From NCBI GenBank assembly GCA_001790815.1, contig MGDU01000001.1, forward strand, positions 2,982-66,981: 64,000 bases of DNA. The letters are read 5' to 3'. Made by a program: the position numbers and the translations under genes. Origin of the DNA: Candidatus Uhrbacteria bacterium RIFCSPHIGHO2_02_FULL_46_47. GTDB taxonomy: Bacteria; Patescibacteriota; Patescibacteriia; GWA2-47-26. The notes beneath the pieces are model-generated. The model had not been told where the DNA came from. It searched no databases and saw only the letters and a program-made list of their open reading frames with translations. Numbering within the stretch: the first letter of the stretch is position 1; every line of letters begins with the position of its first letter. Shown here one piece after another: positions 7,959 through 64,000 of this stretch.

Positions 7959-7997
<39 letters not shown>

Positions 7998-8345: not shown

Positions 8346-8379
<34 letters not shown>

Positions 8380-8404
8380 TGGCGAACAGCCAAACCCTTG
8401 GGAC

Positions 8405-9170: not shown

Positions 9171-9206
9171 AGCCCCAGGATGCGATGAGCCGACATCGTA
9201 CATTAA

Positions 9207-11733: not shown

Positions 11734-11756
11734 GAAACATTGTTCACCCGACAAGG

Positions 11757-12040
11757 GATTTCGCTTATCGTGTTACTCATCCTATTAAGGATGGGCATGG
11801 TCATTTCTGCCATGCTCTGCATGTCGCCATGCAGATCGGACTCTATCTTCTCCACGTATTTGATACGGGAGTCTGGCATATAGTCTCTACGGACTCTCTC
11901 AACACTTTCGTGTTAAGGTTGCCTCGGTATTGTCTCGATGCTTATCGAGATGTTCACCGATATAGTCAGATTTTCTTCTACATCTTCGCAGGCATTGCGA
12001 AGTTCGAAGGGGGTCTTTCACCCCACTAAGGCAGCAATTC
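11757..12040 (-). mobile_element. group I intron 6 in 23S (~1917), ORF-less
   Basis: Exon ..GUCCUAAGGU (12045) joins AGCGAAAUCCC (11757); core gtagtctctacggactctct..ggttgcctcggtatt is nearly identical to intron 1. Confidence 0.45.
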
Positions 12041-12744: not shown

Positions 12745-12885
12745 CGCGTCGGAATTTCTAATTTCTAATTGACCTAATTTCTAATAAAATTTCCAATGCC
12801 CAATGTTTAATTTCCAAGTTTGGTTATTAGGTATTGGTACTTTTGGATTTTATTAGGTGAATTAGGTGAATTAGGTGAATTAGAC
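12745..12885 (-). repeat. AT-rich palindromic expansion hairpin inside 23S (replaces E. coli helix ~1165-1185)
   Basis: aatttctaatttctaatt...attaggtgaattaggtgaattaggtgaattag arms are near reverse complements; no group I core; flanked by contiguous exon sequence. Confidence 0.5.
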
Positions 12886-12976
12886 ATTTCCCGATGCGAA
12901 GCATCGACTCTTGTCTTCGGTACGCCGCTTAAGCCCCGGTACATTTTCGGCGCGGCACGGCTCGACCAGTGAGCTG

Positions 12977-13025
<49 letters not shown>

Positions 13026-15252: not shown

Positions 15253-16578
15253 TTATCGCGAGAGTGGTCTGAATTTTTGTCCAAGTTCCCAATTAGGATC
15301 AACATCAAGTTTTTGCCAGGGAGTGAATTGTTTGGCGCGGGCCATGAAATACCCAGCCGCGGCAATCATGGCGGCGTTATCTGTTGTGTAGGCAAGAGAT
15401 GGTAGTATGTAGGACGTAGTAGGTAGTTCGGATTTAATCGTATTGGCCAATTGCTCGCGCAGGCGTTTGTTTGCCGCCACCCCACCACCAAGAAGAACTG
15501 TTTTCACCTTGTACTTTTTCGCCGCGCGCACAGTTTTGGCTACCAGCACATCCACCACGGCTTGTTCAAATGAAGCACAAATACGTACTAAAGCATCCTG
15601 CGGGAGATTTGATGCGGCCGCAGAATTTTTACCCACTTTATTTTTCGCAAGAAAATCTCTGACATAATACAAAACCGCGGTTTTGAGTCCGGAAAATGAA
15701 AAATCAAAGTCCGGCGAATCAATCATGGGGCGAGGGAAGTGAATGCCCCCTCCCCTAACCCCTCCCACAAGGGGAGGGGGATTTTCTTTTATTCCCTCTC
15801 CCTTGATGGGAGAGGGTTGGGGTGAGGGTGGTTGCCTTGGGTGGAATTTCTCGGCCAATCTTGAAATGGCTGGTCCTCCCGGATAGCCCAACCCCAACAT
15901 CTTGGCCACTTTATCAAACGCTTCTCCTGCCGCATCATCGCGCGTTGCGCCAATAATCTTGAAATCCAAGTGCTTTTTCATAAGCACCAGTTCAGTGTGG
16001 CCACCACTCACAATCAAACACAGGAGTGGAAATTGTACACCCTCACCCTGCCCTCTCCCAGAGGGAGAGGAAAATTGTGGCGGTTTTCCCTCTCCCCATG
16101 TGGGAGAGGGTGGCCGTAGGCCAGGTGAGGGAAGCCAATTCGCATACACATGCCCTGCAAGATGATTTACTGCCACCACCGGCTTGCGCCAAAGATACGA
16201 AAACGTACGCGCCACTTCCACACCGACAAGGAGTGAAGTCGCCAGTCCCGGCCCAGCCGTTACCGCGATAGCATCAATCTCCCCCTCCCCTAGCCCCTCC
16301 CACCGAGGGAGGGGAACTTCTTTTTTCTTCCTCCCCCTTGATGGGGGAGGATTGAGGAGGGGATGAACCCCTTTCAAAGCTTGCTCTACCACTGGAATAA
16401 TCTTCTCCACATGCGCTCTTGCGGCCACCTCTGGCACCACCCCGCCGGTCTTGGCATGGATCTTAATCTGCGATGCCACAATGTTACTGTGAACTGTGAA
16501 CTGTTGTCTGTGAACTTCAACTACGGCCGCCGCAGTTTCATCACACGATGTTTCAATTCCTAAAATTCGCATAATCAA
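15253..16578 (-). CDS. tsaD: tRNA N6-adenosine threonylcarbamoyltransferase TsaD (Kae1/Gcp family), lengthened by three in-frame repeat insertions
   Basis: MIMRILGIETSCDETAAAVVE N-terminus; 441 aa vs ~340 typical; extra Pro/Gly/Glu-rich segments encoded by the palindromic elements at 15727-15840, 16040-16130, 16270-16365. Confidence 0.85.
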   Translation of the reverse strand: MIMRILGIETSCDETAAAVVEVHRQQFTVHSNIVASQIKIHAKTGGVVPEVAARAHVEKIIPVVEQALKGVHPLLNPPPSRGRKKKEVPLPRWEGLGEGEIDAIAVTAGPGLATSLLVGVEVARTFSYLWRKPVVAVNHLAGHVYANWLPSPGLRPPSPTWGEGKPPQFSSPSGRGQGEGVQFPLLCLIVSGGHTELVLMKKHLDFKIIGATRDDAAGEAFDKVAKMLGLGYPGGPAISRLAEKFHPRQPPSPQPSPIKGEGIKENPPPLVGGVRGGGIHFPRPMIDSPDFDFSFSGLKTAVLYYVRDFLAKNKVGKNSAAASNLPQDALVRICASFEQAVVDVLVAKTVRAAKKYKVKTVLLGGGVAANKRLREQLANTIKSELPTTSYILPSLAYTTDNAAMIAAAGYFMARAKQFTPWQKLDVDPNWELGQKFRPLSR

Positions 16579-27916: not shown

Positions 27917-30439
27917 ATGTCCAAAGAACGCTTTATGATAATTGACGGCAATGCCCTGGTGCACCGGGCATTTCATGCGCTTCCGCCGCTTTCCACCAAA
28001 GACGGTAAAATAGTCAATGCCGTATATGGATTTACAACAGTTTTGATGAAGGCATTGAAGGAGCTCAAGCCGGAATACGCGGCGGTAACTTTTGATTTAG
28101 CCGCGCCGACTTTTCGGCACAAGTTATACAAAGAATATAAAGCGCAACGTATAAAACAGCCGCAAGAATTATATGATCAACTGCCACTGGTTAAAGAAGT
28201 GGTGCGCGCGTTTGATATTCCGGTAGTGGAGAAAGAGGGATTTGAAGCTGATGATGTAATCGCGACTTTGTCGCGAAAATCCCAAATCCCAAGCACCAAA
28301 TCACAAATCGAAACGATTATTGTAACTGGAGACATGGACACATTGCAACTTGTGGATGAGAATACCAAAATTTACAGTTTTCGCAAAGGATTTTCCGATA
28401 CATTTATCTATGATGCACAAGCAGTGCAAGAGCGCTATGGACTCACGCCGGAGCAAATGGTGGATTACAAGGCCTTGCGCGGCGACCCATCTGACAATAT
28501 TCCGGGTGTGCGCGGTATTGGCGAAAAAACTGCTGTGGAATTATTGAAGGAGTTTAGCTCAGTAGAAAAACTATACAAAGAAATTGATAAAGAAAGTGTA
28601 CGCGCTAAAACAATACGGCCCAAAGTGTTGGAGCTGTTAAAACAATATCGAGAAGACGCAATGCTTGGCAAGAAGCTGGTGGAATTGGTAAAAGATGTGC
28701 CGCTTTCAGTATCGCTCAAAGATTGTAAACTAAGCGAACCAGATAAGAATAAGTTGAAAGAGATTTTTGAAAAATTTGAATTCAGGAATTTGTTGGCGCG
28801 ATTGGAAAAAAAAGATGTAGCCGCAGGTCTTCAGCCTGCGCAAAAAGCACAAGGATCGTTGTTGGGTAACCCCTCACCTGACCTTCAGTCATCCTCTCCA
28901 TCAGGGAGAGGGAAGGGTGAGGGTGGGATGTCACCCCTTTATGTTCGTGAAGGCAACACCATCATCGGCCACGATCTAAAATCAATACTACATACTACCC
29001 CCTACGCACTACCTCCTCCATTTTTTGACACCATGATTGCCTCTTATCTTTTGCATCCGGGAAGAGGCATGCATGACTTTGAAAGTGTTTTGCGTGAGCA
29101 CAATATGGAGCTGAATGGTCAAGCAGTGGTATTGCTTGCACAAAAACTTCAAGGGGAGCTGGCAAAAGAGAATCTCACGCCAGTATTTGAAAGTATTGAA
29201 ATGCCGCTTATTCCAGTGCTTGCGAAAATGGAGGGGATTGGCATTAAAGTGGATACGCCCTATTTAAAAAAATTATCTGTGCAATTTGCCAAAGAGTTAG
29301 ACGGATTTCAGAAAAAAATCCACAAACTCGCGGGCGAGGAATTTAATATTGCCTCACCAATGCAGTTACGCGAGGTGCTGTTTGAAAAAATGAAACTAGC
29401 TCCGGAAACTGGTCGCATTAAAAAAACCGCCAAAGGCAAAGTTGCCTCCACTGCCGCGGGCGAGCTTGAAAAATTGCGCGGACTACACCCCATTGTGGAT
29501 TTAATTTTTGATTATCGCGAGATTGCCAAATTGCAATCCACCTATACTGACGCTCTTATAGAATTAGTTGATAAAAAAGACGGCCGGGTGCACACTACTT
29601 TTAATCAAGCTGTAACTGCTACGGGTCGACTCTCCTCATCAAGTCCTAATTTGCAAAATATTCCGATTCGCACTGAAACCGGACGCCTGATTCGCAAAGC
29701 CTTTGTGGCTGAAAAAGGATATGTGCTTTTGTCTGCGGATTATTCGCAAATTGAATTGCGCGTAGCGGCTTCGCTTTCCGGCGATCCTGAACTTATTAAG
29801 GCATTTAAAAGTGGACATGATTTTCATGCCCATACCGCCTCATTGATGTTTGGTGTAGCTGAGGATAAAGTAACCAAGGAGATGCGGCGCAATGCCAAAG
29901 CCATTAATTTTGGAATTATTTATGGCATGGGTGCCACTGCGCTTGCGCAATCAACCGGTATGCCGCGCTATGAAGCCGAACAATTTATCGCGCGTTATTT
30001 TGAAGTGTTTAATGGCTTGCGCGATTATTTGGAAGGGTTAAAAGAGAAAGCCCGCACCAAAGGATATGTAGAAACGCTTTTTGGCCGCCGGCGATATCTT
30101 CCGGAAATAAATTCCGGTGTGCAACAAGTCCGCGCCGCGGCCGAGCGCATGGCCATTAATATGCCGGTTCAAGGCACCGCAGCAGATTTGATGAAAATGG
30201 CCATGATTAAAATTCATCAAGAACTACGTGCTACTTCCTACATACTACATACTAATGCACGCATGCTTCTCCAAGTGCATGATGAATTGGTCTTTGAAAT
30301 TAAAGAAGATCAAGTGACAGAAATTGCACCAAAAATTAAATCCATCATGGAAACCGTGCACACTTTCAAAGTCCCAATCCTTGTAGAACTCAAAACAGGC
30401 AAAAATTGGGGAGAGCTTTCTCCATTTTCCTCCCCTTAG
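27917..30439 (+). CDS. polA: DNA polymerase I
   Basis: 5'-3' exonuclease N-terminus (IIDGNALVHRAFHAL); polymerase motifs (RRNAKAINFGIIYG, QVHDELVFE); contains in-frame repeat insertions and a repeat-encoded C-terminus. Confidence 0.9.
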   Translation: MSKERFMIIDGNALVHRAFHALPPLSTKDGKIVNAVYGFTTVLMKALKELKPEYAAVTFDLAAPTFRHKLYKEYKAQRIKQPQELYDQLPLVKEVVRAFDIPVVEKEGFEADDVIATLSRKSQIPSTKSQIETIIVTGDMDTLQLVDENTKIYSFRKGFSDTFIYDAQAVQERYGLTPEQMVDYKALRGDPSDNIPGVRGIGEKTAVELLKEFSSVEKLYKEIDKESVRAKTIRPKVLELLKQYREDAMLGKKLVELVKDVPLSVSLKDCKLSEPDKNKLKEIFEKFEFRNLLARLEKKDVAAGLQPAQKAQGSLLGNPSPDLQSSSPSGRGKGEGGMSPLYVREGNTIIGHDLKSILHTTPYALPPPFFDTMIASYLLHPGRGMHDFESVLREHNMELNGQAVVLLAQKLQGELAKENLTPVFESIEMPLIPVLAKMEGIGIKVDTPYLKKLSVQFAKELDGFQKKIHKLAGEEFNIASPMQLREVLFEKMKLAPETGRIKKTAKGKVASTAAGELEKLRGLHPIVDLIFDYREIAKLQSTYTDALIELVDKKDGRVHTTFNQAVTATGRLSSSSPNLQNIPIRTETGRLIRKAFVAEKGYVLLSADYSQIELRVAASLSGDPELIKAFKSGHDFHAHTASLMFGVAEDKVTKEMRRNAKAINFGIIYGMGATALAQSTGMPRYEAEQFIARYFEVFNGLRDYLEGLKEKARTKGYVETLFGRRRYLPEINSGVQQVRAAAERMAINMPVQGTAADLMKMAMIKIHQELRATSYILHTNARMLLQVHDELVFEIKEDQVTEIAPKIKSIMETVHTFKVPILVELKTGKNWGELSPFSSP

Positions 30440-41935: not shown

Positions 41936-42275
41936 TTTACTGCATTTTCACTTCGTTCAAATGCAGTATTCTTGAATTAGTCCGAACGCATTTCGCCGCC
42001 TGCGGCGGCGAGGGAGTCCCCTCGCGAAATTCCGAAATCTCGGCTCCGCCGCACCGCTGACAATTTTCCCGCCACATATTTTAAACTTTTGGAAGGCGGG
42101 ATTGCGTTTTGTAACTTCGCTTCGCTCAGACAAAACGGGAACAAGTTTTTCTTTGGTGGCAAATTCTTTTATGAAAATTCTTAATTCAAAAATTAAAAAA
42201 GAAAGCGGGCGGGACACTTATCGTGCCACGCCCGTGATTGTGCGGTTGCCATCTTCGTACCGCCGCGGTTATGAG

Positions 42276-42695
42276 TCAGCGATGACTCTGGTCGGCGTCG
42301 AGGACCGCTTGGCTTCCGCCGATGAACAGAGCGTGGAAGTAGCTGTCGCGGAGCGCTTCCTTGATTTCGTCCAGATTCGGCGCGTCCTCGTAGCCCTGCG
42401 GCGTCAGAATGACCCGCTGATCGTTCACCGGCTTGCCATGGAAGACGTGGTTTCCGTCTGTGAGGCCGATGTACCAGCCGCGGTCGAACTCGCACTCCTT
42501 CAGTGCACAGGTGTTGGGGCCTCCGGTGGGAACTGCCGTCGCCTTGACTGGGGGGTCGAAGCGATAATACTTCCCACGAACCAGTTTCTGCTGCGCCGCG
42601 TTGTTGGCGACGACATGGTCTGCCGTCATTGTGTCTCTCATCGGAAACTGCATGGCGTTTTGCCTCCTCTCAAGGTTCAGGTTTCGTCGCCGCAA
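42276..42695 (-). CDS. hypothetical protein (GC-rich), copy 1 of the tandemly duplicated gene
   Basis: Most protein-like frame in the repeat unit; likely start at internal MQFPMRD. Confidence 0.4.
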   Translation of the reverse strand: MRRRNLNLERRQNAMQFPMRDTMTADHVVANNAAQQKLVRGKYYRFDPPVKATAVPTGGPNTCALKECEFDRGWYIGLTDGNHVFHGKPVNDQRVILTPQGYEDAPNLDEIKEALRDSYFHALFIGGSQAVLDADQSHR

Positions 42696-43195
42696 CGTGC
42701 AGGCAACGACTATCGGTCTATGATTCCGATAATGTTCAATGTTAGCATACTACGCCATAAAAGTCAAGAGGCGGCAAGTGCCGCCTCTTGGGAGTATTTG
42801 AAAAATTTTTCTTTTCTGCTTCTACAAAATATGGTTCCCGCTCAAATCTTATTTGAGCGAGGCTCGCTCAGATTTCTGAGCGGCGAGCCGACCTGCGCTT
42901 CGCCGAGGCTTCGGCAAGGCGAGTGTTTTTCTACGGGTTCTTTTGCGGTTTTGATTCGTGCGGCGGAGCCGCACCGCTGACAATTTTCCCGCCACATATT
43001 TTAAACTTTTGGAAGGCGGGATTGCGTTTTGTAACTTCGCTTCGCTCAGACAAAACGGGAACAAGTTTTTCTTTGGTGGCAAATTCTTTTATGAAAATTC
43101 TTAATTCAAAAATTAAAAAAGAAAGCGGGCGGGACACTTATCGTGCCACGCCCGTGATTGTGCGGTTGCCATCTTCGTACCGCCGCGGTTATGAG

Positions 43196-43615
43196 TCAGC
43201 GATGACTCTGGTCGGCGTCGAGGACCGCTTGGCTTCCGCCGATGAACAGAGCGTGGAAGTAGCTGTCGCGGAGCGCTTCCTTGATTTCGTCCAGATTCGG
43301 CGCGTCCTCGTAGCCCTGCGGCGTCAGAATGACCCGCTGATCGTTCACCGGCTTGCCATGGAAGACGTGGTTTCCGTCTGTGAGGCCGATGTACCAGCCG
43401 CGGTCGAACTCGCACTCCTTCAGTGCACAGGTGTTGGGGCCTCCGGTGGGAACTGCCGTCGCCTTGACTGGGGGGTCGAAGCGATAATACTTCCCACGAA
43501 CCAGTTTCTGCTGCGCCGCGTTGTTGGCGACGACATGGTCTGCCGTCATTGTGTCTCTCATCGGAAACTGCATGGCGTTTTGCCTCCTCTCAAGGTTCAG
43601 GTTTCGTCGCCGCAA
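43196..43615 (-). CDS. hypothetical protein, copy 2 (100% identical)
   Basis: Identical translation to 42276..42695. Confidence 0.4.
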   Translation of the reverse strand: MRRRNLNLERRQNAMQFPMRDTMTADHVVANNAAQQKLVRGKYYRFDPPVKATAVPTGGPNTCALKECEFDRGWYIGLTDGNHVFHGKPVNDQRVILTPQGYEDAPNLDEIKEALRDSYFHALFIGGSQAVLDADQSHR

Positions 43616-44151
43616 CGTGCAGGCAACGACTATCGGTCTATGATTCCGATAATGTTCAATGTTAGCATACTACGCCATAAAAGTCAAGAGGCGGCAAGTG
43701 CCGCCTCTTGGGAGTATTTGAAAAATTTTTCTTTTCTGCTTCTACAAAATATGGTTCCCGCTCAAATCTTATTTGAGCGAGGCTCGCTCAGATTTCTGAG
43801 CGGCGAGCCGACCTGCGCTTCGCCGAGGCTTCGGCAAGGCGAGTGTTTTTCTACGGGTTCTTTTGCGGTTTTGATTCGTGCGGCGGAGCCGCACCGCTGA
43901 CAATTTTCCCGCCACATATTTTAAACTTTTGGAAGGCGGGATTGCGTTTTGTAACTTCGCTTCGCTCAGACAAAACGGGAACAAGTTTTTCCCTGCCTGC
44001 CGGCAGGCAGGTTTGGCGGCATTCAATCCAAGAATTCGCGAAGCGAATATTTAAAGAATATAGGATTTTAAAAATGATGACAACAACGACAATGAGAAAA
44101 GAGAAACAGGCCGAACGCTCTTACGAACGCTGGCCTGTTGGTTGTGGTTTC

Positions 44152-44643
44152 TCACGGCAGTTCTCCGTTCAGGATTTCCTGCCACGAGTTCACCTGCTTG
44201 ACCCGGTTGAGGAAGCGAGCGTATCGCCGCACTTCATCGGGACGTGGCTGAAAGAGATAGAGCGTGCTCACCGTGGCGAGGTTGCCCAAGATTTCCAATC
44301 GGTCGTCAACGAAGTGGGTGATGCCCAACTCCTCGCAGATACTGGCCTTCTCGTGTCTCTCACGGCAGAAGCGAACACGCTCGCGTCCGATTCCGGTGAG
44401 GTCGTAGAAGCGGTGATGGTCGAGCCATTGCAGGGTTTTGTCCTGCACGCGCTGACCGCACTTCGAGACAAGGAATACCTTGTCGCCGAACCGCTTCTCC
44501 ACGAGCTGGCGCAGAGCGTCGAAGACGCCCGGCACTGCCGTAGTCCGCAGGTAATTGTCAGTGAAGAACGAGGTATCGGTTCCGTCGTTCACTCGGTTGA
44601 TGATGACGCCGCCGATATCGACGCCAAGCGTTTCTGCATTCAA
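44152..44643 (-). CDS. hypothetical HAD-like / 5'-nucleotidase-like protein (GC-rich)
   Basis: N-terminal GVDIGGVII resembles HAD motif I; the opposite-strand ORF 43843..44679 is rejected. Confidence 0.35.
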   Translation of the reverse strand: MNAETLGVDIGGVIINRVNDGTDTSFFTDNYLRTTAVPGVFDALRQLVEKRFGDKVFLVSKCGQRVQDKTLQWLDHHRFYDLTGIGRERVRFCRERHEKASICEELGITHFVDDRLEILGNLATVSTLYLFQPRPDEVRRYARFLNRVKQVNSWQEILNGELP

Positions 44644-44878
44644 CGTTCTGTCCTCCTATCAAGGTACGTTTTAACCTAAGCACCATGCCTAGATTTGAAA
44701 GCAATCATAGCATATCCAGTCTAATACGTCAAGAAGCGGCGTTTGGCCGCTTCTTGGAAAGAATCAGTAGGATTAAAAAATTTTCTTCCCCCAAAATTAA
44801 AATATGGTTCCCGCTCAAATCTTATTTGAGCGAGGCTCGCTCAGATTTCTGAGCGGCAAGCCGATGTTTTTTCCTAAT

Positions 44879-55605: not shown

Positions 55606-55765
55606 ATTTTATCTGTGGCCACGTTGTTCCAAGTGAATCGTCGTTGGGTACGATAAACCGAGAACAACGCCAAACCAGGTAAATTTAAGATTAAATGAGT
55701 ATATCACAACATCAATATTGTGGCAAGAGCGCCATACTGTTATACTAGAATGTGCGACACAAAGT

Positions 55766-56800
55766 ATGACACTTGATACATTAGTGCGACAATTTTTGGA
55801 ATATATTGAGGTGGAACGAGGACGGAGCAAAAGGACGATTGAAAATTACCAGTTTTATCTAGGGCGGTTTTTGATGTGGTCTGCGGATCATGGGGTAAAG
55901 AGTCCGGCTGGCATAACGCAAGATACAGTGCGCGAGTATCGGCTGTGGCTGAATCGCTACAGGGCTAAGCCCTTAAAGCATACAGGGCTTAGCCCTGACG
56001 AGGGACTTAAAAAAAATACTCAAAACTATCATCTTATTGCATTGCGCGCGTTTTTAAAATATCTTTCCAAGCGCGATATCAAAACCCTTGTGCCGGAAAA
56101 AATTGAATTGGGCAAAATGCCTACGCGGCAAGTGGATTTTCTTGAGGCAGAAGATTTGGAACGGATGCTTAAGGCGCCGCTTATCCCCTCACCTGACCTG
56201 CGGTCTTCCTCTCCCGAGGGGGTCGAAGACGGGCCGAGCGGGCGTAGGCCCCGGGGAGGGCAGGGAGAGGGCAGTATTGTGCAACTTCGCGACAAGGCAA
56301 TTTTGGAAATGTTGTTTTCAACAGGCCTGCGCGTGTCCGAGCTTGCTGGACTCAAACGTACGGATGTGAATCCAAAAAAAGAAGAGTTTACCGTGCGCGG
56401 TAAAGGAAGCAAATTACGCGTGGTCTTTATGTCGCCGGGAGCGCGGGAGTGGCTTAAAAAATATTTGGACGCGCGCGGTGATATGGCGCCATATTTGTTT
56501 GTCCGCCATGATAAAGCCCGTCTCAAAAGCGGAGAAGGCGGCGCGCTTACGCCGCGTTCAATACAAAGAATTGTGGAGAAGTATGCCAAAGCCGCGGGAA
56601 TTACCAAACGCATTTCCCCGCACACCCTCCGACACACATTCGCTACTGACCTTTTGCGCAATGGCGCCGATATTCGCAGTGTGCAAGCTTTGCTTGGCCA
56701 TTCCTCCATTACCACCACCCAAATCTACACTCATGTTACCGACACCCAGCTTCGCGAGGTGCACAAGGCATTTCATGCACGGCAAAGAGCAGAGGATTGA
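55766..56800 (+). CDS. tyrosine recombinase XerC/XerD family, carrying an in-frame repeat insertion
   Basis: HTLRHTFATDLLRNGADIRSVQALLGHSSITTTQIYTHV catalytic region; insertion at 56188-56285. Confidence 0.8.
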   Translation: MTLDTLVRQFLEYIEVERGRSKRTIENYQFYLGRFLMWSADHGVKSPAGITQDTVREYRLWLNRYRAKPLKHTGLSPDEGLKKNTQNYHLIALRAFLKYLSKRDIKTLVPEKIELGKMPTRQVDFLEAEDLERMLKAPLIPSPDLRSSSPEGVEDGPSGRRPRGGQGEGSIVQLRDKAILEMLFSTGLRVSELAGLKRTDVNPKKEEFTVRGKGSKLRVVFMSPGAREWLKKYLDARGDMAPYLFVRHDKARLKSGEGGALTPRSIQRIVEKYAKAAGITKRISPHTLRHTFATDLLRNGADIRSVQALLGHSSITTTQIYTHVTDTQLREVHKAFHARQRAED

Positions 56801-56939
56801 CTTTTGTAAAAATTTATGATAGTTTATAGTCAACTTCGCCCCTGTAGCCCCGAAGCACTTTATGGTCGGGGAGCCGACCTCCGACGCGGTGGTCGGAGCA
56901 TGTGGAGCGTCGGCTTTCAATGGACCCCGCACCTTCTGC

Positions 56940-57012
56940 GCCCCCATAGCTCAATGGATAGAGCAGTGCTCTTCTAAGGCATTGATGTACGTTCGACTCG
57001 TGCTGGGGGCAG
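56940..57012 (+). tRNA. tRNA-Arg (anticodon TCT)
   Basis: GCCCCCA/UGGGGGC acceptor, U8, anticodon loop CUUCUAA; embedded in a 14-bp inverted repeat (ccccgcaccttctg ... cagagaaggtgcgggg). Confidence 0.65.
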
Positions 57013-57053
57013 AGAAGGTGCGGGGCAGATAGAACTGTGAATTTCTCAATAGT

Positions 57054-57129
57054 GGGGTGCCTATGGTGTAATGGCAGCACAGAGCCCTGTGGAGGCTTTA
57101 GTTCGGGTTCGAATCCCGATAGGCACCCC
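57054..57129 (+). tRNA. tRNA-His (anticodon GTG) with encoded G-1
   Basis: Extra 5' G pairing with C73; anticodon loop CUGUGGA; T arm GGGUUCGAAUCCC. Confidence 0.7.
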
Positions 57130-57182
57130 ATTGTTGAGAAAGAAACGAGGCCAAAAGGCCTCGTTTTCTGTTTTCCCGCAAT

Positions 57183-58277
57183 ATGTTATACTGTATGACT
57201 ATGCACATGTTAGACAACCCGGAACATTTTAAAAAATACGATAAGCATAAAGTGCTGGAGTCAATTATCGCGCTTCCCAAGCAGTGTCAGCAGGCCTGGG
57301 CAGAGACAACTCAGATAAAATTCCCAGCATCTTACCACAAGGTGAAAAATGTTGTAATTGCCGGCATGGGAGGGTCAACGCTGGGCGGCTACATGATCAA
57401 AAGTATTTACGAGAAAGAATTGCGCGTGCCGATGGAAGTGGTTAATCATTACAATCTGCCGGAATACGTCAATCGTGATACTTTGGTTATTGTCGCTAGT
57501 TATTCCGGCGGCACCGAAGAAACTTTGGCGGCGGCTCAAGAGGCAAAAAAACGAGGTGGGAAAATAATGGGAATTACTACAGGTGGAACGCTTGGCAAGT
57601 GGCTTGCGGCACATAAAGTGCCGCGCTACGTTTTTGTGCCTACACACAATCCTTCAGGCCAGCCACGGCTGGGTACGGGGTATACGATGATCGGAATGCT
57701 GGCGATGCTGTGTTCAGCAGGTGTTTTTGGTAGCCGCCGGTCTTTAGCCGGCGATATTGCGCGCAGCCTAAAGAGCTGCGACTACAATCGGTTGTTTGGT
57801 TCATTCGCACCTACAACAAAAAACCCTGCAAAACAAATGGCGGAAAAATTAAAAAATCGCGGGGTTTTGATTTTTGCCTCGCAGCATTTGATTGGAAATG
57901 CGCATACCATGGCCAACCAGATCAATGAGAGCGCAAAACAATTTGCCGTGTCATTCCCGCTTCCGGAGGCGAACCATCATTTAATGGAAGGGTTGACTTT
58001 TCCTAAAACCAATTCGCGAAATCTGGCCGGGCTTTTTCTGGAATCCAATCTTTATCATCCGCGCGTGGCCAAACGCTATCCAATTTCCCGTGAGGTACTG
58101 CAAAAACAGCACATCCCCGCCTATGCATGGGCGCCACGCGGGAACAACCGCTTATTACAGGCATTAGAAGCTCTTTCCTTTGGCAGTTTTCTCTCTTTTT
58201 ATCTAGCGATGCAAAATAATCTTGATCCATCTCAGATTCCGTGGGTGGATTATTTTAAAAGAAAGCTTGGGGCATGA
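57183..58277 (+). CDS. bifunctional phosphoglucose/phosphomannose isomerase (SIS domain)
   Basis: Family-typical N-terminus and SIS motifs (IAGMGGSTLGG). Confidence 0.6.
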   Translation: MLYCMTMHMLDNPEHFKKYDKHKVLESIIALPKQCQQAWAETTQIKFPASYHKVKNVVIAGMGGSTLGGYMIKSIYEKELRVPMEVVNHYNLPEYVNRDTLVIVASYSGGTEETLAAAQEAKKRGGKIMGITTGGTLGKWLAAHKVPRYVFVPTHNPSGQPRLGTGYTMIGMLAMLCSAGVFGSRRSLAGDIARSLKSCDYNRLFGSFAPTTKNPAKQMAEKLKNRGVLIFASQHLIGNAHTMANQINESAKQFAVSFPLPEANHHLMEGLTFPKTNSRNLAGLFLESNLYHPRVAKRYPISREVLQKQHIPAYAWAPRGNNRLLQALEALSFGSFLSFYLAMQNNLDPSQIPWVDYFKRKLGA

Positions 58278-58972
58278 AGGTCGCTGTTATTATTCCTACT
58301 TACAACGAGCGAGCAAATATCAAAAAGCTCGTGAAGCAAATTTTTGCGCTGAATATTTCCGAATTGGAAGTAATTGTAGTTGATGATTCTTCAAATGACG
58401 GCACGCTTGAGGTGGTGCGCGCTCTGCGCAAGCGTTTTCCGGTTACGCTTATTTTGCGTCCTAAAAAACTCGGCCTGGGCAGTGCTTTGCGCGACGGACT
58501 AACTTTGGCCGTGCAACATGGTGCGACAGTGACCATTACCATGGATGCGGATTTTTCGCATGATCCGCAATTGCTTCCAAAAATGATTTCCGAAATTGTG
58601 CAGGGCAAGGATTTGGTAATCGGTTCCCGTAGAATTTCTGGGGGAGAGATTATCGGCTGGGGGCCATGGCGGACATTTATGAGCCGGGCGGCAATGGAGT
58701 TTTCCCGGCGCGTACTTGATATTTCGGCGCGCGATGTAACCTCTGGTTTTCGCGCGTATCGCCGGCGAGTGCTGGAAATAATTGATCTTTCACGCATATC
58801 AAGCACTGGGTATGCGTTTCAGGAAGAAATGCTGTACAAAGCCCAGCGCGCGGGATTTAAAATTGCGGAAATTCCCATTGTGTTTAATGATCGCCGGCAC
58901 GGAAAATCAAAATTGGGAATAAGAGATATTGCGGAATTCTTCGTGACAGTGGTACGATTAAAGTTATCTTAA
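58274..58972 (+). CDS. GT2 glycosyltransferase, polyprenol-phosphate mannose/glucose synthase (Dpm1-like)
   Basis: VIIPTYNERANI...VVDDSSNDGT...DADFSHDP motifs; C-terminal TM. Confidence 0.75.
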   Translation: MKVAVIIPTYNERANIKKLVKQIFALNISELEVIVVDDSSNDGTLEVVRALRKRFPVTLILRPKKLGLGSALRDGLTLAVQHGATVTITMDADFSHDPQLLPKMISEIVQGKDLVIGSRRISGGEIIGWGPWRTFMSRAAMEFSRRVLDISARDVTSGFRAYRRRVLEIIDLSRISSTGYAFQEEMLYKAQRAGFKIAEIPIVFNDRRHGKSKLGIRDIAEFFVTVVRLKLS

Positions 58973-59074: not shown

Positions 59075-60769
59075 ATGCGACAACATAAACTAATTTTAAT
59101 CGGCATTATTCTTCTTGGCCTTTTTTTGCGTCTCTTTATTTTATCTCAAAGAGGTTCGCTTTGGTTTGATGAGGCATTTTCCGTGCATTTTGCAGAAATG
59201 CCGCTTAAACAGATGCTTCATTATTTGCAGTTTGAAAATAATCCGCCGTTATATTTTATTCTGCTTCATTTTTGGATGAAACTTTTCGGAAGCGGAGAGC
59301 TTGCGGTGCGCGCGCTTTCCATGATTTTTGGCATGGCAAGCATTCCGATGGTATATGTGCTGGGCGTGCGGCTTTTTACTCCTCTCGCCCAAACCCCCTC
59401 ACCCGATCTCGCTTCCGCTCAATCACCCTCTCCCCAAGGGAGAGGGCAGGGTGAGGGACGAGTGGCCGGACTTTTTGCGGCATTTCTTCTTGCAATTTCC
59501 ACATTCCAGGTTTATTACGCAACCGAAACGCGGATGTATACGCTGTATTTGTTTTTAGCATTGCTTGCGGTTTGGTTGTTCGTTAGATTACAGATTAAAG
59601 ATTTAAGATTAAAGACAGCATATCAGGCGAATCCGTCACTGAGTGATAAGGGTGCCCATCACTCAGTGACGAAATTTGTTCCTCTTTTCTTAGTTCTACT
59701 CCTACTTATCTGGACGCATATCACTGCTTGGATGATTATCGCCGCATTATTAATTTACCTTTTGTGGCAATCGCAATTCAACATTAAACAATTCATAATT
59801 CATAATTCTAGATTCATAATTCTTGGAGCACTTTTAGTGCTCCAATTCCTGCCCTGGGCTGTTAATTTTATTAAACTCAAAATTATTACGCCAATATCAC
59901 AAGGATATTTTTTTTATCTTCCGCCTGATAAGAATTTTTTTCTTTCAATCCTTGAAATGTTTTTGGTGTTTGGGCAGGATAATGCTTTTATTGTAACACT
60001 TTTAAGTGTGGTGATTGTGGGGCTACTTTGGTTTGCATTGCGTAGTGCCTTCACCCCAACTCCTCTCCCTGAGGGAGAGGGTAGGGTGAGGGGGGTACGA
60101 TTGCTATTTTCATGGCTACTTGTTCCACTTCTTATTGGTTTTGCGTTTTCAAATGCCATCCCGCGTTACTTTATTGCAGTAGCGCCGGCATTGTATTTGT
60201 TGCTGGGAATCGGGTTTGCCAATTTTGTTGAGCGAATAAAAGGTAAATTTACTTTAAGACAATTCTACTTACTACATACTACCTTCTACCTACTCATGCT
60301 CGCGTTGATTTTTCCGGATTTACCATCACTTGTAAAAATTGGGCATCGTGAGTGGGATAAATTGACAGGGTGGGTAGAGCAAATGCAAAATGTAAAATGT
60401 AAAATTAAAAATGAGTGTCTTGTGTTAATAAATCCGCATAGTGAGATTTTGCCGTTTGAACGATATTACAAGGGTTCATTGCCAGTGGTCGGCTTTTATC
60501 CGCGCGATGATCAAGATGATCGCGATACACGTATTGTAAAGACAAATTGGATCTCGCTTAATACAAAAGAAAATGTCCCGCGGCTGCGGGACATAACGCG
60601 CGGATATAATCACGTATTTTTGGTAACCGGCGGGATTGATCCGATTGGCCGCAATCTAGTGCCGGCCTGGTTTTGGGATAATGGGTGGAAGAGGGTTGAG
60701 TCTCAGGAGTTTGGAAGAATATCAGTGATGGTGTTGGAACGGTTGCCCCTCACCCAACCCTCTCCCTAA
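59075..60769 (+). CDS. ArnT/PMT-family (GT39/GT83-like) polyprenol-phosphate-sugar-dependent glycosyltransferase with in-frame repeat insertions
   Basis: Polytopic; N-terminal DEAFSVHFAEM loop typical of GT-C mannosyltransferases; follows a Dpm1-like donor synthase. Confidence 0.6.
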   Translation: MRQHKLILIGIILLGLFLRLFILSQRGSLWFDEAFSVHFAEMPLKQMLHYLQFENNPPLYFILLHFWMKLFGSGELAVRALSMIFGMASIPMVYVLGVRLFTPLAQTPSPDLASAQSPSPQGRGQGEGRVAGLFAAFLLAISTFQVYYATETRMYTLYLFLALLAVWLFVRLQIKDLRLKTAYQANPSLSDKGAHHSVTKFVPLFLVLLLLIWTHITAWMIIAALLIYLLWQSQFNIKQFIIHNSRFIILGALLVLQFLPWAVNFIKLKIITPISQGYFFYLPPDKNFFLSILEMFLVFGQDNAFIVTLLSVVIVGLLWFALRSAFTPTPLPEGEGRVRGVRLLFSWLLVPLLIGFAFSNAIPRYFIAVAPALYLLLGIGFANFVERIKGKFTLRQFYLLHTTFYLLMLALIFPDLPSLVKIGHREWDKLTGWVEQMQNVKCKIKNECLVLINPHSEILPFERYYKGSLPVVGFYPRDDQDDRDTRIVKTNWISLNTKENVPRLRDITRGYNHVFLVTGGIDPIGRNLVPAWFWDNGWKRVESQEFGRISVMVLERLPLTQPSP

Positions 60770-60802
60770 GGGAGAGGGGGATTGTAGGTTTGGTGAGGGA
60801 GA

Positions 60803-61465
60803 TTAGTCAAAGATATTGCTGTCCCGACCAACTGCGTCAGTAGCTTTTTCTTGGCACTCTTGCCATTTGTCATAGGCATTATTGACATCTTCTTCTGTGG
60901 CTGAACCCCCCACTCCGAAAGGCCCAGTCTGAAGTTGAGTATTTTGATAGGCATTCCATTCATTGCAACAGGTTGCTCGCCCAATAGCTTCGCCAGAAGT
61001 TGCACAGCTTTGCACCTGGCTTGCAAATTGCTCACGAATGGAATTGAGCAAACCGCGTGTTACAAAAAACGCGATACTATAGGAAGTCCAAATAATTGTC
61101 GTGCCGACCGCGGCGCGGGTAATAATTTTTTTTGCGGTGCCGATTTTTTCGTCATTTCCTTGCGAAGTCATGTATATTACTCCGCCATAGACAAGATAAA
61201 CAATCAGAATCAAGCCGACAAAGCCCAAAGACCAACGCGTAATTTTCAAAACATACACGCGAATATCTACTGCCGCAAGCGCGCTTTCTCCCAACCCAAC
61301 TACCGCGGCTTGTTGAGCAGTGCCGCGAATGCCTTCTTGCAGACCTGGGGAGATTTGCGCGTGGGCAGTGGGAATTAAAAATGTAAAATGAAAAATGAAA
61401 AATGAAATTACAAAAATAAATGCTAAATACTTTGCATTTTTAATTTTCAATTTTGTATTCTTCAC
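60803..61465 (-). CDS. pilin-like small membrane protein, paralog 1 (Cys-rich C-terminal ectodomain)
   Basis: Signal peptide; two TM helices flanking YGGVIYMTSQGNDEKIGTAKKIITRAAVG. Confidence 0.5.
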   Translation of the reverse strand: MKNTKLKIKNAKYLAFIFVISFFIFHFTFLIPTAHAQISPGLQEGIRGTAQQAAVVGLGESALAAVDIRVYVLKITRWSLGFVGLILIVYLVYGGVIYMTSQGNDEKIGTAKKIITRAAVGTTIIWTSYSIAFFVTRGLLNSIREQFASQVQSCATSGEAIGRATCCNEWNAYQNTQLQTGPFGVGGSATEEDVNNAYDKWQECQEKATDAVGRDSNIFD

Positions 61466-61815
61466 ATGTTTGCTTTAGCATTAAGGATGATTCTTGCTAG
61501 TATCTTACCAAGTTCTCGGCATTCCTGCAAAAGCATCTCAACTGTTTTCCTGTCAATCCAAGCGAGTTCAATCAGAATTTCAAGCCAAAGCTCGGTTTCA
61601 CGCAATTCCTTAAGAGCAATGCCCATACAACTGACAAATTCCGGTTTAGATCGCGCGCTAGCAGCTTCACGCGCATTAGCGGCCGGTGATGTGCCAGAAC
61701 CAACTAGTTGGTTGGCAATTCGGAAAGCACCGGGTATGCGAAGCAATTTTTGTGAAAGTCGTATTGTATCAATTGCAAATCTTTTAAGGCGTTGATGTAT
61801 TTCCTTTTCTTCCAT
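61462..61815 (-). CDS. four-helix-bundle protein (23S rRNA intervening-sequence protein family)
   Basis: 117 aa; SQKLLRIPGAFRIANQLVGSGTSPAANAREA ... ELRETELWLEI pattern of TIGR02436/PF05635; flanked by AT-rich inverted repeats. Confidence 0.6.
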   Translation of the reverse strand: MEEKEIHQRLKRFAIDTIRLSQKLLRIPGAFRIANQLVGSGTSPAANAREAASARSKPEFVSCMGIALKELRETELWLEILIELAWIDRKTVEMLLQECRELGKILARIILNAKANM

Positions 61816-61848
61816 TTTACATTTTAAATTTTTAATTTTACATTACCC

Positions 61849-62343
61849 CTACCTTTGTTCCAATCTAAACGGCCCATATTCCAATCCTCCGCGTGAGGGA
61901 CCGCTGGGCTTAAATGCGACATTTAAAATGAAGTTGGTGATAATCCAAGAGCCCAGCATAATGGCCAGGCCAATGGTTGCCCGCACTATGCGCGTGCGCG
62001 CTTTTTTTACGGTTTCTTCATTGCCGCCAGCCATCATCCATTGAATTCCGGAATAAACTGTGAAAATTAAGAAAGCAAGGCCGGCAAGCAAAAATGCAGT
62101 ATTGGCCAAAACGCCAATGCGCGTGGCAATCGGGTTGGGTGCGCTTCCCAATCCGCCAATCGCATCATCAGTAGCTGATGGACCAAAAAGAGTTTTGGCG
62201 CGGCAGACAATTGGATCAAGAGATGCCGCGCAGGGATCAGGATTGGGGGGTGGCGGCTCATCAGCCAAGACAGGCAAAGAAGCCAGAAGCAAAAAGCCAA
62301 AAGCCAGAATTGTTATTAAAATTAATTTTGGGACTTGTTTCAT
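61849..62343 (-). CDS. pilin-like small membrane protein, paralog 2
   Basis: Signal peptide; YSGIQWMMAGGNEETVKKARTRIVRATIGL. Confidence 0.5.
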   Translation of the reverse strand: MKQVPKLILITILAFGFLLLASLPVLADEPPPPNPDPCAASLDPIVCRAKTLFGPSATDDAIGGLGSAPNPIATRIGVLANTAFLLAGLAFLIFTVYSGIQWMMAGGNEETVKKARTRIVRATIGLAIMLGSWIITNFILNVAFKPSGPSRGGLEYGPFRLEQR

Positions 62344-62669
62344 AGAGTAGTGCTACTGGTCAGAATTTCGGCAACTGTGCGGGTAATAATTAAGGCCAAA
62401 AGGGTAATCGCAAAGCCAACTATTGCTCTCAAAATATAGGTGCGCGCTTTTTTTACTTGTTCTTCATTGCCGCCAGCAGTGAGCCAAAGATATCCGCCGT
62501 AAAGAATCACCAGAAAAAAAATCACGCCCACAAACGAAAGCGCGACTGATACAAGACCGGCAAAAATGGATCTGATATCCTTACCTTCGCCCGATACATA
62601 TCCGGCTTTTTCCAAAAATATCTCAGTAGGGGTTTGGGGCATATCTGCTATTGGCCAATGAGCACACAT
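62340..62669 (-). CDS. pilin-like small membrane protein, paralog 3
   Basis: YGGYLWLTAGGNEEQVKKARTYILRAIVGF. Confidence 0.5.
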   Translation of the reverse strand: MCAHWPIADMPQTPTEIFLEKAGYVSGEGKDIRSIFAGLVSVALSFVGVIFFLVILYGGYLWLTAGGNEEQVKKARTYILRAIVGFAITLLALIITRTVAEILTSSTTL

Positions 62670-63337
62670 TTTGCATCATAATCCCATATTTCCAAAGCAC
62701 TCCAGCCACTGCCCCGATCAACTACTAGTCCATATCCGTCAGGACAGGTATAAAATGGGCTGGGTTCTACCTCAGTAGGTATGGCTCCTCCTTCTGAAGG
62801 AGGCGTTACTGGCCGCGCCACATAGCCAGTAACAAAACGAGTAATTGAGGCGGCAAAAAGCACAATTAAAATTCCAATTGCGGCGCGGACAATTGTGTGT
62901 TTGGCTTTTTTTACCTGCTCTTCATTGCCGCTAGCGGTTAAGTACAGCGCACCGCCATACAAGGTCAGGGCGAAAAAAATAACTCCGATAAGCAGGAGCG
63001 CGGCATTTACAATATTGCCGGTAAAAATTGCTAAGTCTGTTTCTCCGGTTCCAAGTGGGGCTAGTTCTCCGCCGCCGGCTTTGAGCAGTTTTTGAAGCAC
63101 TGCACCTTTGCCTGTTTCAAATGCCGGGGAATGTTCCTCACCCGGCATATGTGTGGCATGCACGGCAGGCGCTGGAAATGCGGCAATGAATATGATTGCC
63201 GCAAGAATAATGAATTTGAAATATCGGGAAGCTGAGCTTCTGTAACTACGGAAGCTCAGCTTCCATTTATAATTCCTGCCTGCCCCGCGCCTCCCGCCTT
63301 GGCGGGATGGTGCGGGGATTCCTGATTCCTGGTTCAT
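62648..63337 (-). CDS. pilin-like small membrane protein, paralog 4 (with C-terminal ectodomain)
   Basis: YGGALYLTASGNEEQVKKAKHTIVRAAIGI. Confidence 0.5.
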   Translation of the reverse strand: MNQESGIPAPSRQGGRRGAGRNYKWKLSFRSYRSSASRYFKFIILAAIIFIAAFPAPAVHATHMPGEEHSPAFETGKGAVLQKLLKAGGGELAPLGTGETDLAIFTGNIVNAALLLIGVIFFALTLYGGALYLTASGNEEQVKKAKHTIVRAAIGILIVLFAASITRFVTGYVARPVTPPSEGGAIPTEVEPSPFYTCPDGYGLVVDRGSGWSALEIWDYDAKCVLIGQ

Positions 63338-63338
63338 A

Positions 63339-63686
63339 TTACTGATATGAGGCCAAAATTACCGTGCTGACAATGTAGCTTGTAATCGCGTAAGCGCCGA
63401 CAACAACGATGAATCCAATAGTTGCGGTGGTCAAAATACCAATTGATTTTTTTACCTGCTCCTCATTTCCCCGCGCAGTCATCCAAAGATATCCACCGTA
63501 AATAACAAGAATGCCAAAAATCACGCCAATCATAATCATGGCGCCCTGAATAATCTTGCCAATAATAACCTCCGGAGCTTGAGGCGCTCCACCAAATCCG
63601 GCTTTTTCTCCAAATTTAGTAACAAAAAACCCTGCTCTTTGTAATCCGGTTGACGGTGGCGCAGTGGTATTGTTGGCAATCAACAT
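63339..63686 (-). CDS. pilin-like small membrane protein, paralog 5
   Basis: YGGYLWMTARGNEEQVKKSIGILTTATIGF. Confidence 0.5.
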   Translation of the reverse strand: MLIANNTTAPPSTGLQRAGFFVTKFGEKAGFGGAPQAPEVIIGKIIQGAMIMIGVIFGILVIYGGYLWMTARGNEEQVKKSIGILTTATIGFIVVVGAYAITSYIVSTVILASYQ

Positions 63687-63688
63687 AT

Positions 63689-64000
63689 TTATTGCACTTG
63701 TAGCAAGAGTCGGGTAACAATGAAGTTTGTTATGGTATAGGAAAGAAAGACCACAATCAGGCCGATGGTGGCGTCTTTAATAAGTTCTTGCGCTTTTTTT
63801 ACTTTTTCTTCATTGCCCCGCGCGGTCATCCATATAATTCCGCCATAAATCGCCAAAGCAAAAAAGATAACGCCCACAAAACTTAAAAGATAGCCCACAA
63901 GCTCTCCAGCAACTTCAGCCGGTTGTCTTGCTGTTGCCCCTGCGCGTGTTAATCCGGCTTTTTCCGCGGTTTTGAGAAGACCTGCTTTAACTTCTTCTGC
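63689..64000 (-). CDS. pilin-like small membrane protein, paralog 6 (5' end beyond window)
   Basis: YGGIIWMTARGNEEKVKKAQELIKDATIGL; the reading frame continues open upstream to the window edge (..KAGLLKTAEKAGLTRAG..). Confidence 0.5.
   Translation of the reverse strand, partial: AEEVKAGLLKTAEKAGLTRAGATARQPAEVAGELVGYLLSFVGVIFFALAIYGGIIWMTARGNEEKVKKAQELIKDATIGLIVVFLSYTITNFIVTRLLLQVQ

Follow-up and report, generated by a model that had tools for sequence, protein, structure and literature searches.

An ordered nine-gene array of VirB2-like pilin paralogues linked to a solute-binding protein gene in Candidatus Uhrbacteria

The end of the window, by which we mean the whole 64,000-nucleotide stretch of contig MGDU01000001.1 analyzed here, is occupied by a tandem array of genes for small membrane proteins of the family T4SS_pilin (PF18895). 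On longer contigs the complete array comprises nine co-directional pilin genes, of which the window contains the last five whole and most of the fourth. We propose, with moderate confidence, that these genes are VirB2-like pilin paralogues that serve a surface filament or conduit of a type IV secretion system (T4SS) powered by VirB4. The host is Candidatus Uhrbacteria, a member of the Patescibacteria or Candidate Phyla Radiation (CPR) placed in the GTDB class ABY1, which agrees with the initial annotation of this DNA, where such an array was likened to those reported for CPR surface appendages. The same annotation had singled out the array as a candidate for an uncharacterized system, a claim that has to be withdrawn: patescibacterial PF18895 arrays were already described in 2023 (PMC10633639) and 2025 (PMC12102498) and have since been reviewed (PMC12857230).

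Extent and packing of the array

The protein of 115 amino acids (aa) encoded by the fifth pilin gene is also encoded on many public contigs, including MGEJ01000001.1 (GCA_001791295.1); contigs with an identical protein were spread over 38 blocks of the sequence collection, and 24 contigs were examined. Another gene of the window is also present on MGEO01000001.1 (GCA_001791415.1), and both assemblies are Candidatus Uhrbacteria from the Rifle aquifer. The final 10 kb of the window are 100% identical to the loci L001-L003. All recovered copies of the locus were 99.9-100% identical, with zero differences within the array, and represent one strain; being near-identical, they gave no signal of strain-level variation or of the ratio of non-synonymous to synonymous substitutions (dN/dS).

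In the direction of transcription, the complete locus starts with the genes for GalU and for a solute-binding protein (SBP) of the family SBP_bac_1 (467 aa), followed by pilin 1 (181 aa), two pairs of nucleotidyltransferase (NTase) and HEPN genes, pilin 2 (261 aa, 18 Cys), a four-helix-bundle gene, pilin 3 (128 aa), pilin 4 (135 aa), pilins 5-8 (115, 229, 109, and 164 aa), a second four-helix-bundle gene, and pilin 9 (220 aa). Convergent with pilin 9 are the genes for a GT-C-like protein of 564 aa, a GT2 glycosyltransferase, glucose-6-phosphate isomerase, and an integrase, together with two tRNA genes. The series had been expected to continue past the window edge; it does so for three genes beyond the cut one, and the array ends at the SBP_bac_1 gene.

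The six paralogous small membrane proteins and the single interrupting four-helix-bundle gene that had been read on the minus strand of the window were all confirmed as open reading frames (ORFs). Paralogue 4 is represented by its C-terminal 104 codons (63689-64000, minus strand), its start lying beyond the window edge; in full it has 135 aa (L001 9591-9998). It is followed on the same minus strand by paralogue 5 (63339-63686, 115 aa), which was the query for the homologue searches and the structure model, paralogue 6 (62648-63337, 229 aa), paralogue 7 (62340-62669, 109 aa), paralogue 8 (61849-62343, 164 aa), the four-helix-bundle gene (61462-61815, 117 aa), and finally paralogue 9 (60803-61465, 220 aa, GTG start). 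The gene of paralogue 7 overlaps its neighbours by 4 nt and 22 nt, and spacing between the pilin genes of the window ranges from -22 to +33 nt. This tight and partly overlapping packing suggests co-transcription. Promoter and terminator scans across the array did not rise above shuffled expectation. A near-perfect 18-nt inverted repeat with a 2-nt spacer (63227-63264), located in the 5' coding part of the gene of paralogue 6, where the long leader is encoded, could form a strong RNA hairpin.

Family membership and hairpin architecture

The assignment to a T4SS-pilin family made in the initial annotation proved right, as these genes belong to PF18895 (T4SS_pilin, VirB2-like) and some of their close relatives also match the TrbC/VirB2 family PF04956. 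Against the PF18895 gathering threshold of 26.6 bits, paralogues 8, 7, 6, and 5 scored 31.7, 31.0, 37.7, and 30.3 bits and the in-window part of paralogue 4 scored 34.6 bits, while paralogue 9 reached 26.4 bits, 0.2 bits under the threshold. E-values were between 2e-9 and 8e-6 for every in-window paralogue, and in the DNA the loop region recurs as a 91-nt repeat family of five copies with 67-76% identity; together, these results argue that the resemblance of loops and hairpins is not due to chance. The homologue search retrieved 54 proteins at E ≤ 0.001, all of them with PF18895, one also with PF04956, and one named 'pilin' by NCBI. In an alignment of 48 homologues, 48/48 matched PF18895 and 5/48 also matched PF04956 (best E 9.4e-7). 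The family is a very large one, with 66,287 members at E ≤ 0.001 in a profile search of 1.84 billion cluster representatives. Related loci were compared using the 80 most similar ones from species-representative genomes, the best match being 64% identical and the window's own species not among them; they derive mostly from Uhr-, Magasanik-, Falkow-, and Buchananbacteria and from Paceibacteria.

Hydropathy analysis placed hydrophobic segments on both sides of a GNxE loop in all nine paralogues. The AlphaFold2 model of the 115-aa protein, obtained with a 48-sequence alignment, predicted the helices H38-70 and H75-113 (pLDDT ~95), with a mean pLDDT of 80.6 and poorly defined N-terminal 35 residues. 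These results bear out the shared architecture of a hydrophobic hairpin around the loop that had been described for the in-window proteins. Likewise, the hairpin is conserved far above the rest of each protein, as had been claimed: between positional orthologues the hairpin core is 58% identical, and identity drops to 26% in the N-terminal part and to 22% in the C-terminal extension. Other details had been put too strongly. The supposedly near-invariant GNEE-VKKA loop is strongly conserved (GNEETVKKA in paralogue 8, for example), but among the nine paralogues invariance is limited to the columns G, GN-E, and G, with GNDEKIGTAKK in the 220-aa protein and GNPE in two upstream paralogues. The EKAG motif ahead of the first transmembrane (TM) helix is exact only in the 109-, 115-, and 135-aa proteins, the 229-aa protein having LKAG. 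A signal peptide or N-terminal anchor had been assigned to each protein, but hydropathy revealed no recognizable signal peptide in the 109-aa and 115-aa proteins. Paralogue 8 has a signal peptide. In paralogue 6, a leader of ~60 aa precedes the hairpin, which is followed by ~60 aa of C-terminal extension containing 2 Cys; paralogue 9 has a signal peptide and extends C-terminally by ~90 aa that include 4 Cys (hydropathy and Cys count). Across the nine paralogues, Lys and Arg residues number 30 in the loop, 10 before TM1, and 6 after TM2, and just past the predicted leader cleavage site all nine share an invariant Pro flanked by Thr or Ser. A search of PDB sequences with the family profile found no pilin; the only hits were to designed 'Pizza' beta-propellers and were spurious sums of matches to a 20-residue stretch.

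Since CPR bacteria possess type IV pili (T4P), and a GspE/VirB11-like ATPase was found within 10 kb in two related loci, we also considered that these proteins might be PilA-like pilins assembled by a PilB/PilC machine. However, none of the nine N-termini contains the class III signal motif G/F-T-L-x-E, neither N_methyl nor the Pfam pilin family is matched by the in-window paralogues, and the proteins form a two-TM hairpin instead of a single N-terminal helix with a globular head. T4P pilins are therefore excluded at the level of sequence features, and we assign this origin a negligible probability.

For the comparison with VirB2 and TrbC, annotated genes were taken from five MPF_T plasmids, in which a VirB1-like gene and a VirB3 gene lie on either side. 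Alignment of the profiles with hhalign found TM1, loop, and TM2 in the correct register over 55 columns, at a probability of only 16.6% (E 0.0015), with a loop about seven residues longer here than in VirB2/TrbC. All six in-window proteins also matched NCBIfam NF045849 (the Mbov_0395 family) over the hairpin, at 19-31 bits (best 30.8) compared with a cut-off of 40. The link to VirB2 is made because of the Pfam naming, the PF04956 cross-matches of some relatives, and the published gene context in other Patescibacteria; it is not founded on any strong similarity measured in this analysis.

Orthology between arrays and fusion of hairpins

Nearly all of the 80 related loci carry arrays. Those complete on both sides (n = 46) contain 5-13 genes, with modes at 7 and 9, which rules out a fixed number of hairpins per array. 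In each of three loci (L010, L011, and L017), 9/9 paralogues have a collinear reciprocal-best orthologue, paralogue 9 being matched by the final gene of the array; L011 contains one additional gene. Orthologues are 28-73% identical and paralogues within the array 25-55%, and every protein resembles its orthologue more than any of its paralogues, in genomes where the neighbouring GalU, S15, and NYN proteins are 65-80% identical to those encoded here. One-to-one orthology fades in more distant arrays. Such collinear one-to-one orthology does not resemble the outcome of recent amplification or cassette turnover. This points to nine old, specialized, non-redundant subunits with fast-evolving exposed parts.

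The same comparison bears on the possibility that the genes encode interchangeable forms of a single pilus subunit and were amplified to vary antigens or host range. Such an explanation has been put forward for VirB2 arrays in Bartonella and Anaplasma and was suggested for Patescibacteria in passages of the 2025 survey (PMC12102498). In line with this possibility, evolution is much faster in the N- and C-terminal parts outside the cytoplasm (22-26% identity) than in the hairpin (58%), and the length and Cys content of the ectodomains vary greatly among paralogues and orthologues. On the other hand, the 9/9 collinear one-to-one orthologues are maintained in three genomes whose housekeeping proteins differ by 20-35%, with no sign of recent amplification, gene conversion, or turnover; the genes are packed tightly and overlap as in a co-expressed operon; and neither expression-site architecture nor shufflable cassettes are visible. 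The recovered copies of the locus are identical and reveal no population variation, although with one strain this is a weak test. We therefore regard amplification for variation as improbable.

Further evidence came from relatives in which hairpins are joined. The profile search identified poly-pilins with 6 or 8 consecutive PF18895 hairpins in a single polypeptide, namely P0055 (555 aa, six hairpins) and P0067 (820 aa, eight hairpins), such a gene occupying L098 76-1743; read with code 11, P0055 is a single uninterrupted ORF, after which come three single pilin genes. Paralogues fused in one chain are classic evidence of joint assembly, and the nine subunits probably co-assemble. The fused chains should be topologically consistent, with both ends of each hairpin outside. 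In another relative, a leader and hairpin form the N-terminus of a 679-aa Big_5 Ig-like protein (L095 9818-11857, CAZQUL010000001.1) and of a protein of 2,784 aa (L095 11886-20237, same contig), from which it follows that the hairpin is able to carry very large ectodomains.

Absence of a local VirB4 gene

Several observations weigh against a VirB4-powered pilus. Pfam annotation of the 64-kb window and of a further 10 kb past its end revealed no VirB4, VirB6, VirD4, or PrgI, and no VirB4 was found within 10 kb of the 80 most similar arrays. PF04956 itself is matched by none of the six in-window proteins at E ≤ 1, the similarity to true VirB2 is weak (hhalign probability 16.6%), and two paralogues (109 aa and 115 aa) are without a signal peptide. 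The hairpins of relatives are fused to ectodomains of up to ~2,600 aa, a poor fit with a plain pilus subunit, and to our knowledge no pilus of PF18895 proteins has been visualized, nor is one described in the publications cited here. Finally, the presence of VirB4 in this genome is documented solely by Table S1 of the survey by Quinonero-Coronel et al. 2025 (PMC12102498).

Sequence searches agreed with the Pfam annotation. With Agrobacterium VirB4 as query, phmmer returned nothing at E ≤ 10 in the window or in 90 loci; this query may miss VirB4 of the monoderm type, a gap that is covered by the Pfam scans of candidate ORFs. Agrobacterium VirB3, VirB6, and VirB8 likewise matched no ORF in the related loci even at E ≤ 10. 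The recurrent large neighbours and all Walker-A ORFs of at least 450 aa were housekeeping proteins such as FtsK, FtsH, UvrA, SMC, DnaA, and BipA.

The initial annotation had named the absence of any secretion or assembly ATPase from the wider neighbourhood as grounds for abandoning the pilin interpretation. Taken literally, that absence is what we found in the window and the 10 kb beyond it. Nevertheless, the pilin interpretation survives, because the 2025 survey lists VirB4 in both genomes with the longer contigs and places the pilin genes away from virB4 in ~40% of assemblies (PMC12102498).

Linkage to solute-binding protein and sugar genes

Instead of an ATPase, the pilin genes here travel with genes for an SBP and for sugar activation. 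The SBP_bac_1 gene lies directly upstream of the array and just beyond the window end (L001 4141-5544, 467 aa), with only 2 nt between its stop and the first pilin start, and is preceded by the GalU gene (L001 3150-4022; TIGR01099, 335 bits, above cut-off). An SBP_bac_1 homologue was found at most 500 nt from a pilin gene and on the same strand in 53 of the 63 loci whose upstream side could be judged, and GalU was directly upstream of the SBP in 32 of those 53. This linkage is kept across ABY1 and Paceibacteria. The SBP matches GanS and MalE weakly and is a distant binding protein of the carbohydrate type; no ABC permease or ATPase was found beside it. Within the searchable library, no publication was found that joins Patescibacteria, a solute-binding protein, T4SS, and pilin.

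Downstream, the initial annotation had recognized a convergent pair of Dpm1-like and ArnT/PMT-like genes, which is correct at the family level. The first encodes a GT2 glycosyltransferase (58274-58972, plus strand, 232 aa; PF00535, 113.6 bits) whose top NCBIfam matches, all below cut-off, are PgfS, dolichyl-P-hexose transferase, AglJ, and PpgS, and which, judging from these matches, is probably a polyprenyl-phosphate hexose synthase. The second encodes a polytopic GT-C-like glycosyltransferase (59075-60769, plus strand, 564 aa, ~10 TM) that scored 22.9 bits with PMT_2 (PF13231; cut-off 26.1) and 18.2 bits with a TMEM260-like model; its orthologue in L017 (E 6.5e-200) reached 52.8 bits with PMT_2. 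Orthologues of the GT-C gene are directly downstream of the array in L017 and L018. The GT-C gene was rejected as a general downstream neighbour, since direct homologues occur only in the two closest genomes and a polytopic protein is encoded downstream in 8 of ~64 evaluable loci; its link to the array is recurrent, not general. Other recurrent neighbours in the related loci were genes for glycan and envelope functions, namely GT2, GT28/MGDG-synthase-like, DUF2079, PMT_2, Wzy_C, and flippase genes. It is plausible that the flanks form a route of glucose activation leading from glucose-6-phosphate isomerase through GalU and the polyprenyl-phosphate-hexose-synthase-like GT2 to the GT-C protein. 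Because of the shared Thr/Ser-flanked Pro after the leader site and the flanking sugar genes, glycosylation of the pilins is a reasonable hypothesis from the sequences.

These neighbours allow for a different explanation, in which the array is an envelope module independent of VirB4. The paralogues would form a fixed heteromeric membrane assembly (a ring, bundle, or anchor platform) that displays variable ectodomains or couples the adjacent sugar-binding protein to the uptake of host compounds, with no conjugative-type pilus. The frequency of the SBP and GalU linkage is consistent with such a module, as are the absence of a linked VirB4 in more than 80 loci, the strictly conserved order of the paralogues, the fusions of 6-8 hairpins, which would be polytopic membrane proteins, and the hairpin serving as N-terminal module of giant Ig-domain proteins in L095. 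Against it, the family is tied to T4SS elsewhere, both in the essential cluster of S. epibionticum and through its location near virB4 in 1135 of 1948 assemblies in the 2025 survey (PMC12102498), the similarity to TrbC/VirB2 and to the Mycoplasma pilin-like family is weak but consistent, and the SBP comes without an accompanying ABC permease or ATPase. In addition, tandem-fused subunits could still suit a filament, since VirB2-type pili have both subunit termini on the outer face. On balance, an envelope module of this kind seems rather unlikely to us.

Accessory genes, repeats, and other features of the window

The interrupting 117-aa gene matches PF05635 (64.6 bits, cut-off 33.8) and TIGR02436 (86.8 bits, cut-off 24), the family of four-helix-bundle or '23S rRNA intervening sequence' proteins. 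Though related to Avd, it was rejected as the Avd protein of a diversity-generating retroelement, NF033474 scoring only 16.5 compared with a cut-off of 80 and no reverse transcriptase being found nearby. Four-helix-bundle genes occur twice in this array, not at all in L010 and L017, and once in L011, between the SBP and the first pilin. Over 82 loci, 10 such genes were inside or at arrays and 5 outside, i.e., 0.28 compared with 0.06 per 10 kb, a 4.5-fold enrichment inside arrays (binomial P = 0.004). The initial annotation had called the gene mobile. Its variable presence and position and its enrichment agree with this, but the two copies in this array are only ~21% identical, the stop codon of the copy in the window overlaps the GTG start of paralogue 9, and no transposition machinery was seen. 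The four-helix-bundle and NTase/HEPN genes are variable accessory insertions, and mobility of the former is plausible. The NTase/HEPN pairs, which are toxin-antitoxin-like and lie between pilins 1 and 2, are each preceded by a perfect 78-nt repeat (L001 6107-6184 and 6911-6988).

Two further kinds of repeat were detected around the array. A 28-nt inverted repeat composed of AAAATG(T/C) heptamers (61373-61400/61810-61837) brackets the downstream four-helix-bundle gene. Imperfect heptamer repeats of this type, with 6 matches compared with 0.07 expected, were found within the window only around the array: one set (60381-60412) is in the 3' part of the GT-C gene, where it encodes the peptide QMQNVKCKIKNE, another (61379-61403) coincides with signal-peptide codons of the 220-aa pilin, and the third (61814-61831) is just upstream of the four-helix-bundle gene, these latter two sets making up the inverted repeat around it. 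The second kind is a palindromic repeat, CCTCTCCC-N3/4-GGGAGAGGG, often followed by AGGGTGAGGG, with 10 matches on both strands of the window compared with 0 expected. Its copies are located at 16051-16071, 28892-28912, 59426-59457, 60061-60093, and 60746-60789, with a partial one at 56253-56271. Four full copies are inserted in frame in ORFs (a TsaD-like gene, PolA, and twice the GT-C gene) and the partial copy is in the integrase gene, these insertions adding peptides such as SPSPQGRGQGEGR; the copy at 60746-60789 (CCTCTCCC-N-GGGAGAGGG plus flank) spans the GT-C stop and the gap before the convergent pilin gene. The palindromic repeat resembles the Rickettsia palindromic elements, which insert into coding sequence.

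Beyond the sugar genes, a tyrosine recombinase gene adjoins tRNA-Arg(TCT) and tRNA-His (55718-57130). The block of glucose-6-phosphate isomerase, GT2, and GT-C genes between this recombinase and the array is missing at the orthologous position in L010, and the segment from recombinase to array could be a small integrated island. Farther away, a tandem repeat with a unit of 920 nt is present in about three copies with 97-100% identity (42041-44864), and the coordinates of two anchor genes flanking it are offset by 920 nt between the window and MGEJ01000001.1, which suggests a difference in repeat copy number. The 23S rRNA gene (7668-14467, minus strand, with the 5S rRNA gene adjoining) is split by group I introns with LAGLIDADG endonuclease ORFs; intron-split 23S rRNA genes are typical of CPR genomes.

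Comparison with described arrays and related systems

According to the 2025 survey, 3,035 Patescibacteria genomes were scanned with PF18895 and PF04956; VirB2-like pilins were present in 1,948 VirB4-positive assemblies, in 1,135 of them near virB4, and 441 PF18895 arrays of 2-11 genes were recovered from 383 assemblies, for which the authors suggested a role in adaptation to different hosts (PMC12102498). GCA_001791295.1 and GCA_001791415.1 belong to that dataset, and both are VirB4-positive in its Table S1. The array described here is of the same family and, like those of the survey, consists of several co-directional genes, and its identities between paralogues (25-55%) are close to the average of 25% and maximum of 54% given there. 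The survey reports that arrays are commonest in Microgenomatia and Saccharimonadia, whereas this one is found in ABY1, and the largest array has 11 genes compared with up to 13 among our 80 related loci, an approximate figure obtained with a home-made hidden Markov model. A full-text term search of the survey (PMC12102498) showed that neither an SBP neighbour nor fused proteins with several hairpins are mentioned there; the passages we drew on do not refer to GalU or to positional orthology, and no search was aimed at these two. The 2025 review repeats the published points on patescibacterial pilin arrays (PMC12857230).

The only family members with genetic data are those of Southlakia epibionticum ML1, in which six PF18895 genes in tandem (SEML1_0014-0019), within the T4SS cluster SEML1_0006-0019, are required for epibiotic growth (Wang et al. 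2023, PMC10633639). According to the same authors, the T4SSs that Gram-positive bacteria use in conjugation are normally without a pilus (PMC10633639). Both arrays are tandem series of PF18895 paralogues, but the six genes of S. epibionticum lie inside a T4SS cluster, whereas the nine genes here follow an SBP gene, and neither the window nor the adjoining 10 kb contains a T4SS gene. The solitary pilin SEML1_0024 is convergent with a GT-C glycosyltransferase gene and adjoins S15, much as in this window.

Likenesses with more distant systems are partial. VirB2, TrbC, and TraA of diderm T4SSs (the Agrobacterium T-pilus, RP4, and F) are also small proteins with a sometimes long leader, two hydrophobic helices, and a short basic loop. 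In contrast, the proteins of this array have an acidic GNEE motif and a loop ~7 residues longer, the six in-window proteins do not match PF04956, and the host is monoderm, with nine genes instead of one and neither virB1 nor virB3 alongside. Bartonella and Anaplasma phagocytophilum, for which we follow PMC12102498, likewise have arrays of divergent VirB2-type genes in tandem with variable surface-exposed parts. However, those arrays are read as immune-evasion variants in animal pathogens, whereas the present one is stable, collinear across genera, and belongs to a groundwater organism. The pilin-like protein Mbov_0395 of a Mycoplasma integrative and conjugative element shares the weak, sub-cut-off hairpin matches and a monoderm T4SS context, but it represents a family of single genes on a mobile element, compared with a chromosomal array here.

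Proposed role of the array

The proteins of the array follow a common plan: a leader, of Sec type and sometimes very long, in most of them, a fast-evolving N-terminal segment predicted to be extracytoplasmic, and a conserved TM hairpin of two helices, to which some members add a putative C-terminal ectodomain containing Cys. For a VirB4-powered pilus we envisage the following steps. By analogy with VirB2, TraA, and TrbC, the proteins would be inserted into the membrane in a Sec-dependent manner and their leaders cleaved, with the short, K/R-rich hairpin loop (consensus TA-x-GNEE-x-VKKA) facing the cytoplasm. Subunits would then be extracted and polymerized by a VirB4-powered T4SS machine of monoderm type encoded elsewhere in the genome, and the conserved loop would come to line the lumen while the variable termini would be exposed outside. 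Because the paralogues are old and have kept their positions across genera, the nine proteins would be non-redundant parts of one heteromeric assembly and not interchangeable variants. The resulting surface filament or conduit may serve the host-dependent lifestyle.

More tentatively, the arrays of ABY1 and Paceibacteria as a group might encode a fixed heteromeric envelope structure of 5-13 hairpins, sometimes fused in chains of 6-8, that is coupled to SBP, GalU, GT2, and GT-C proteins, although we think this unlikely. Such a structure could be a glycosylated heteropolymeric filament or a membrane ring that captures host-derived compounds and, if real, would represent an appendage of a new type that arose from T4SS pilins.

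A large part of bacterial diversity belongs to the Patescibacteria, which depend on host cells, and in the one genetically tractable species the T4SS and its pilin array are essential to that lifestyle. The present array opens no new category. What is specific to its lineage are the nine ordered paralogues, the linkage to SBP and GalU, the separation from virB4, and the poly-hairpin fusions of its relatives. Taken together, the stable ordered set, the SBP and sugar linkage, and the fusions of up to eight hairpins constrain models of how these appendages are constructed.

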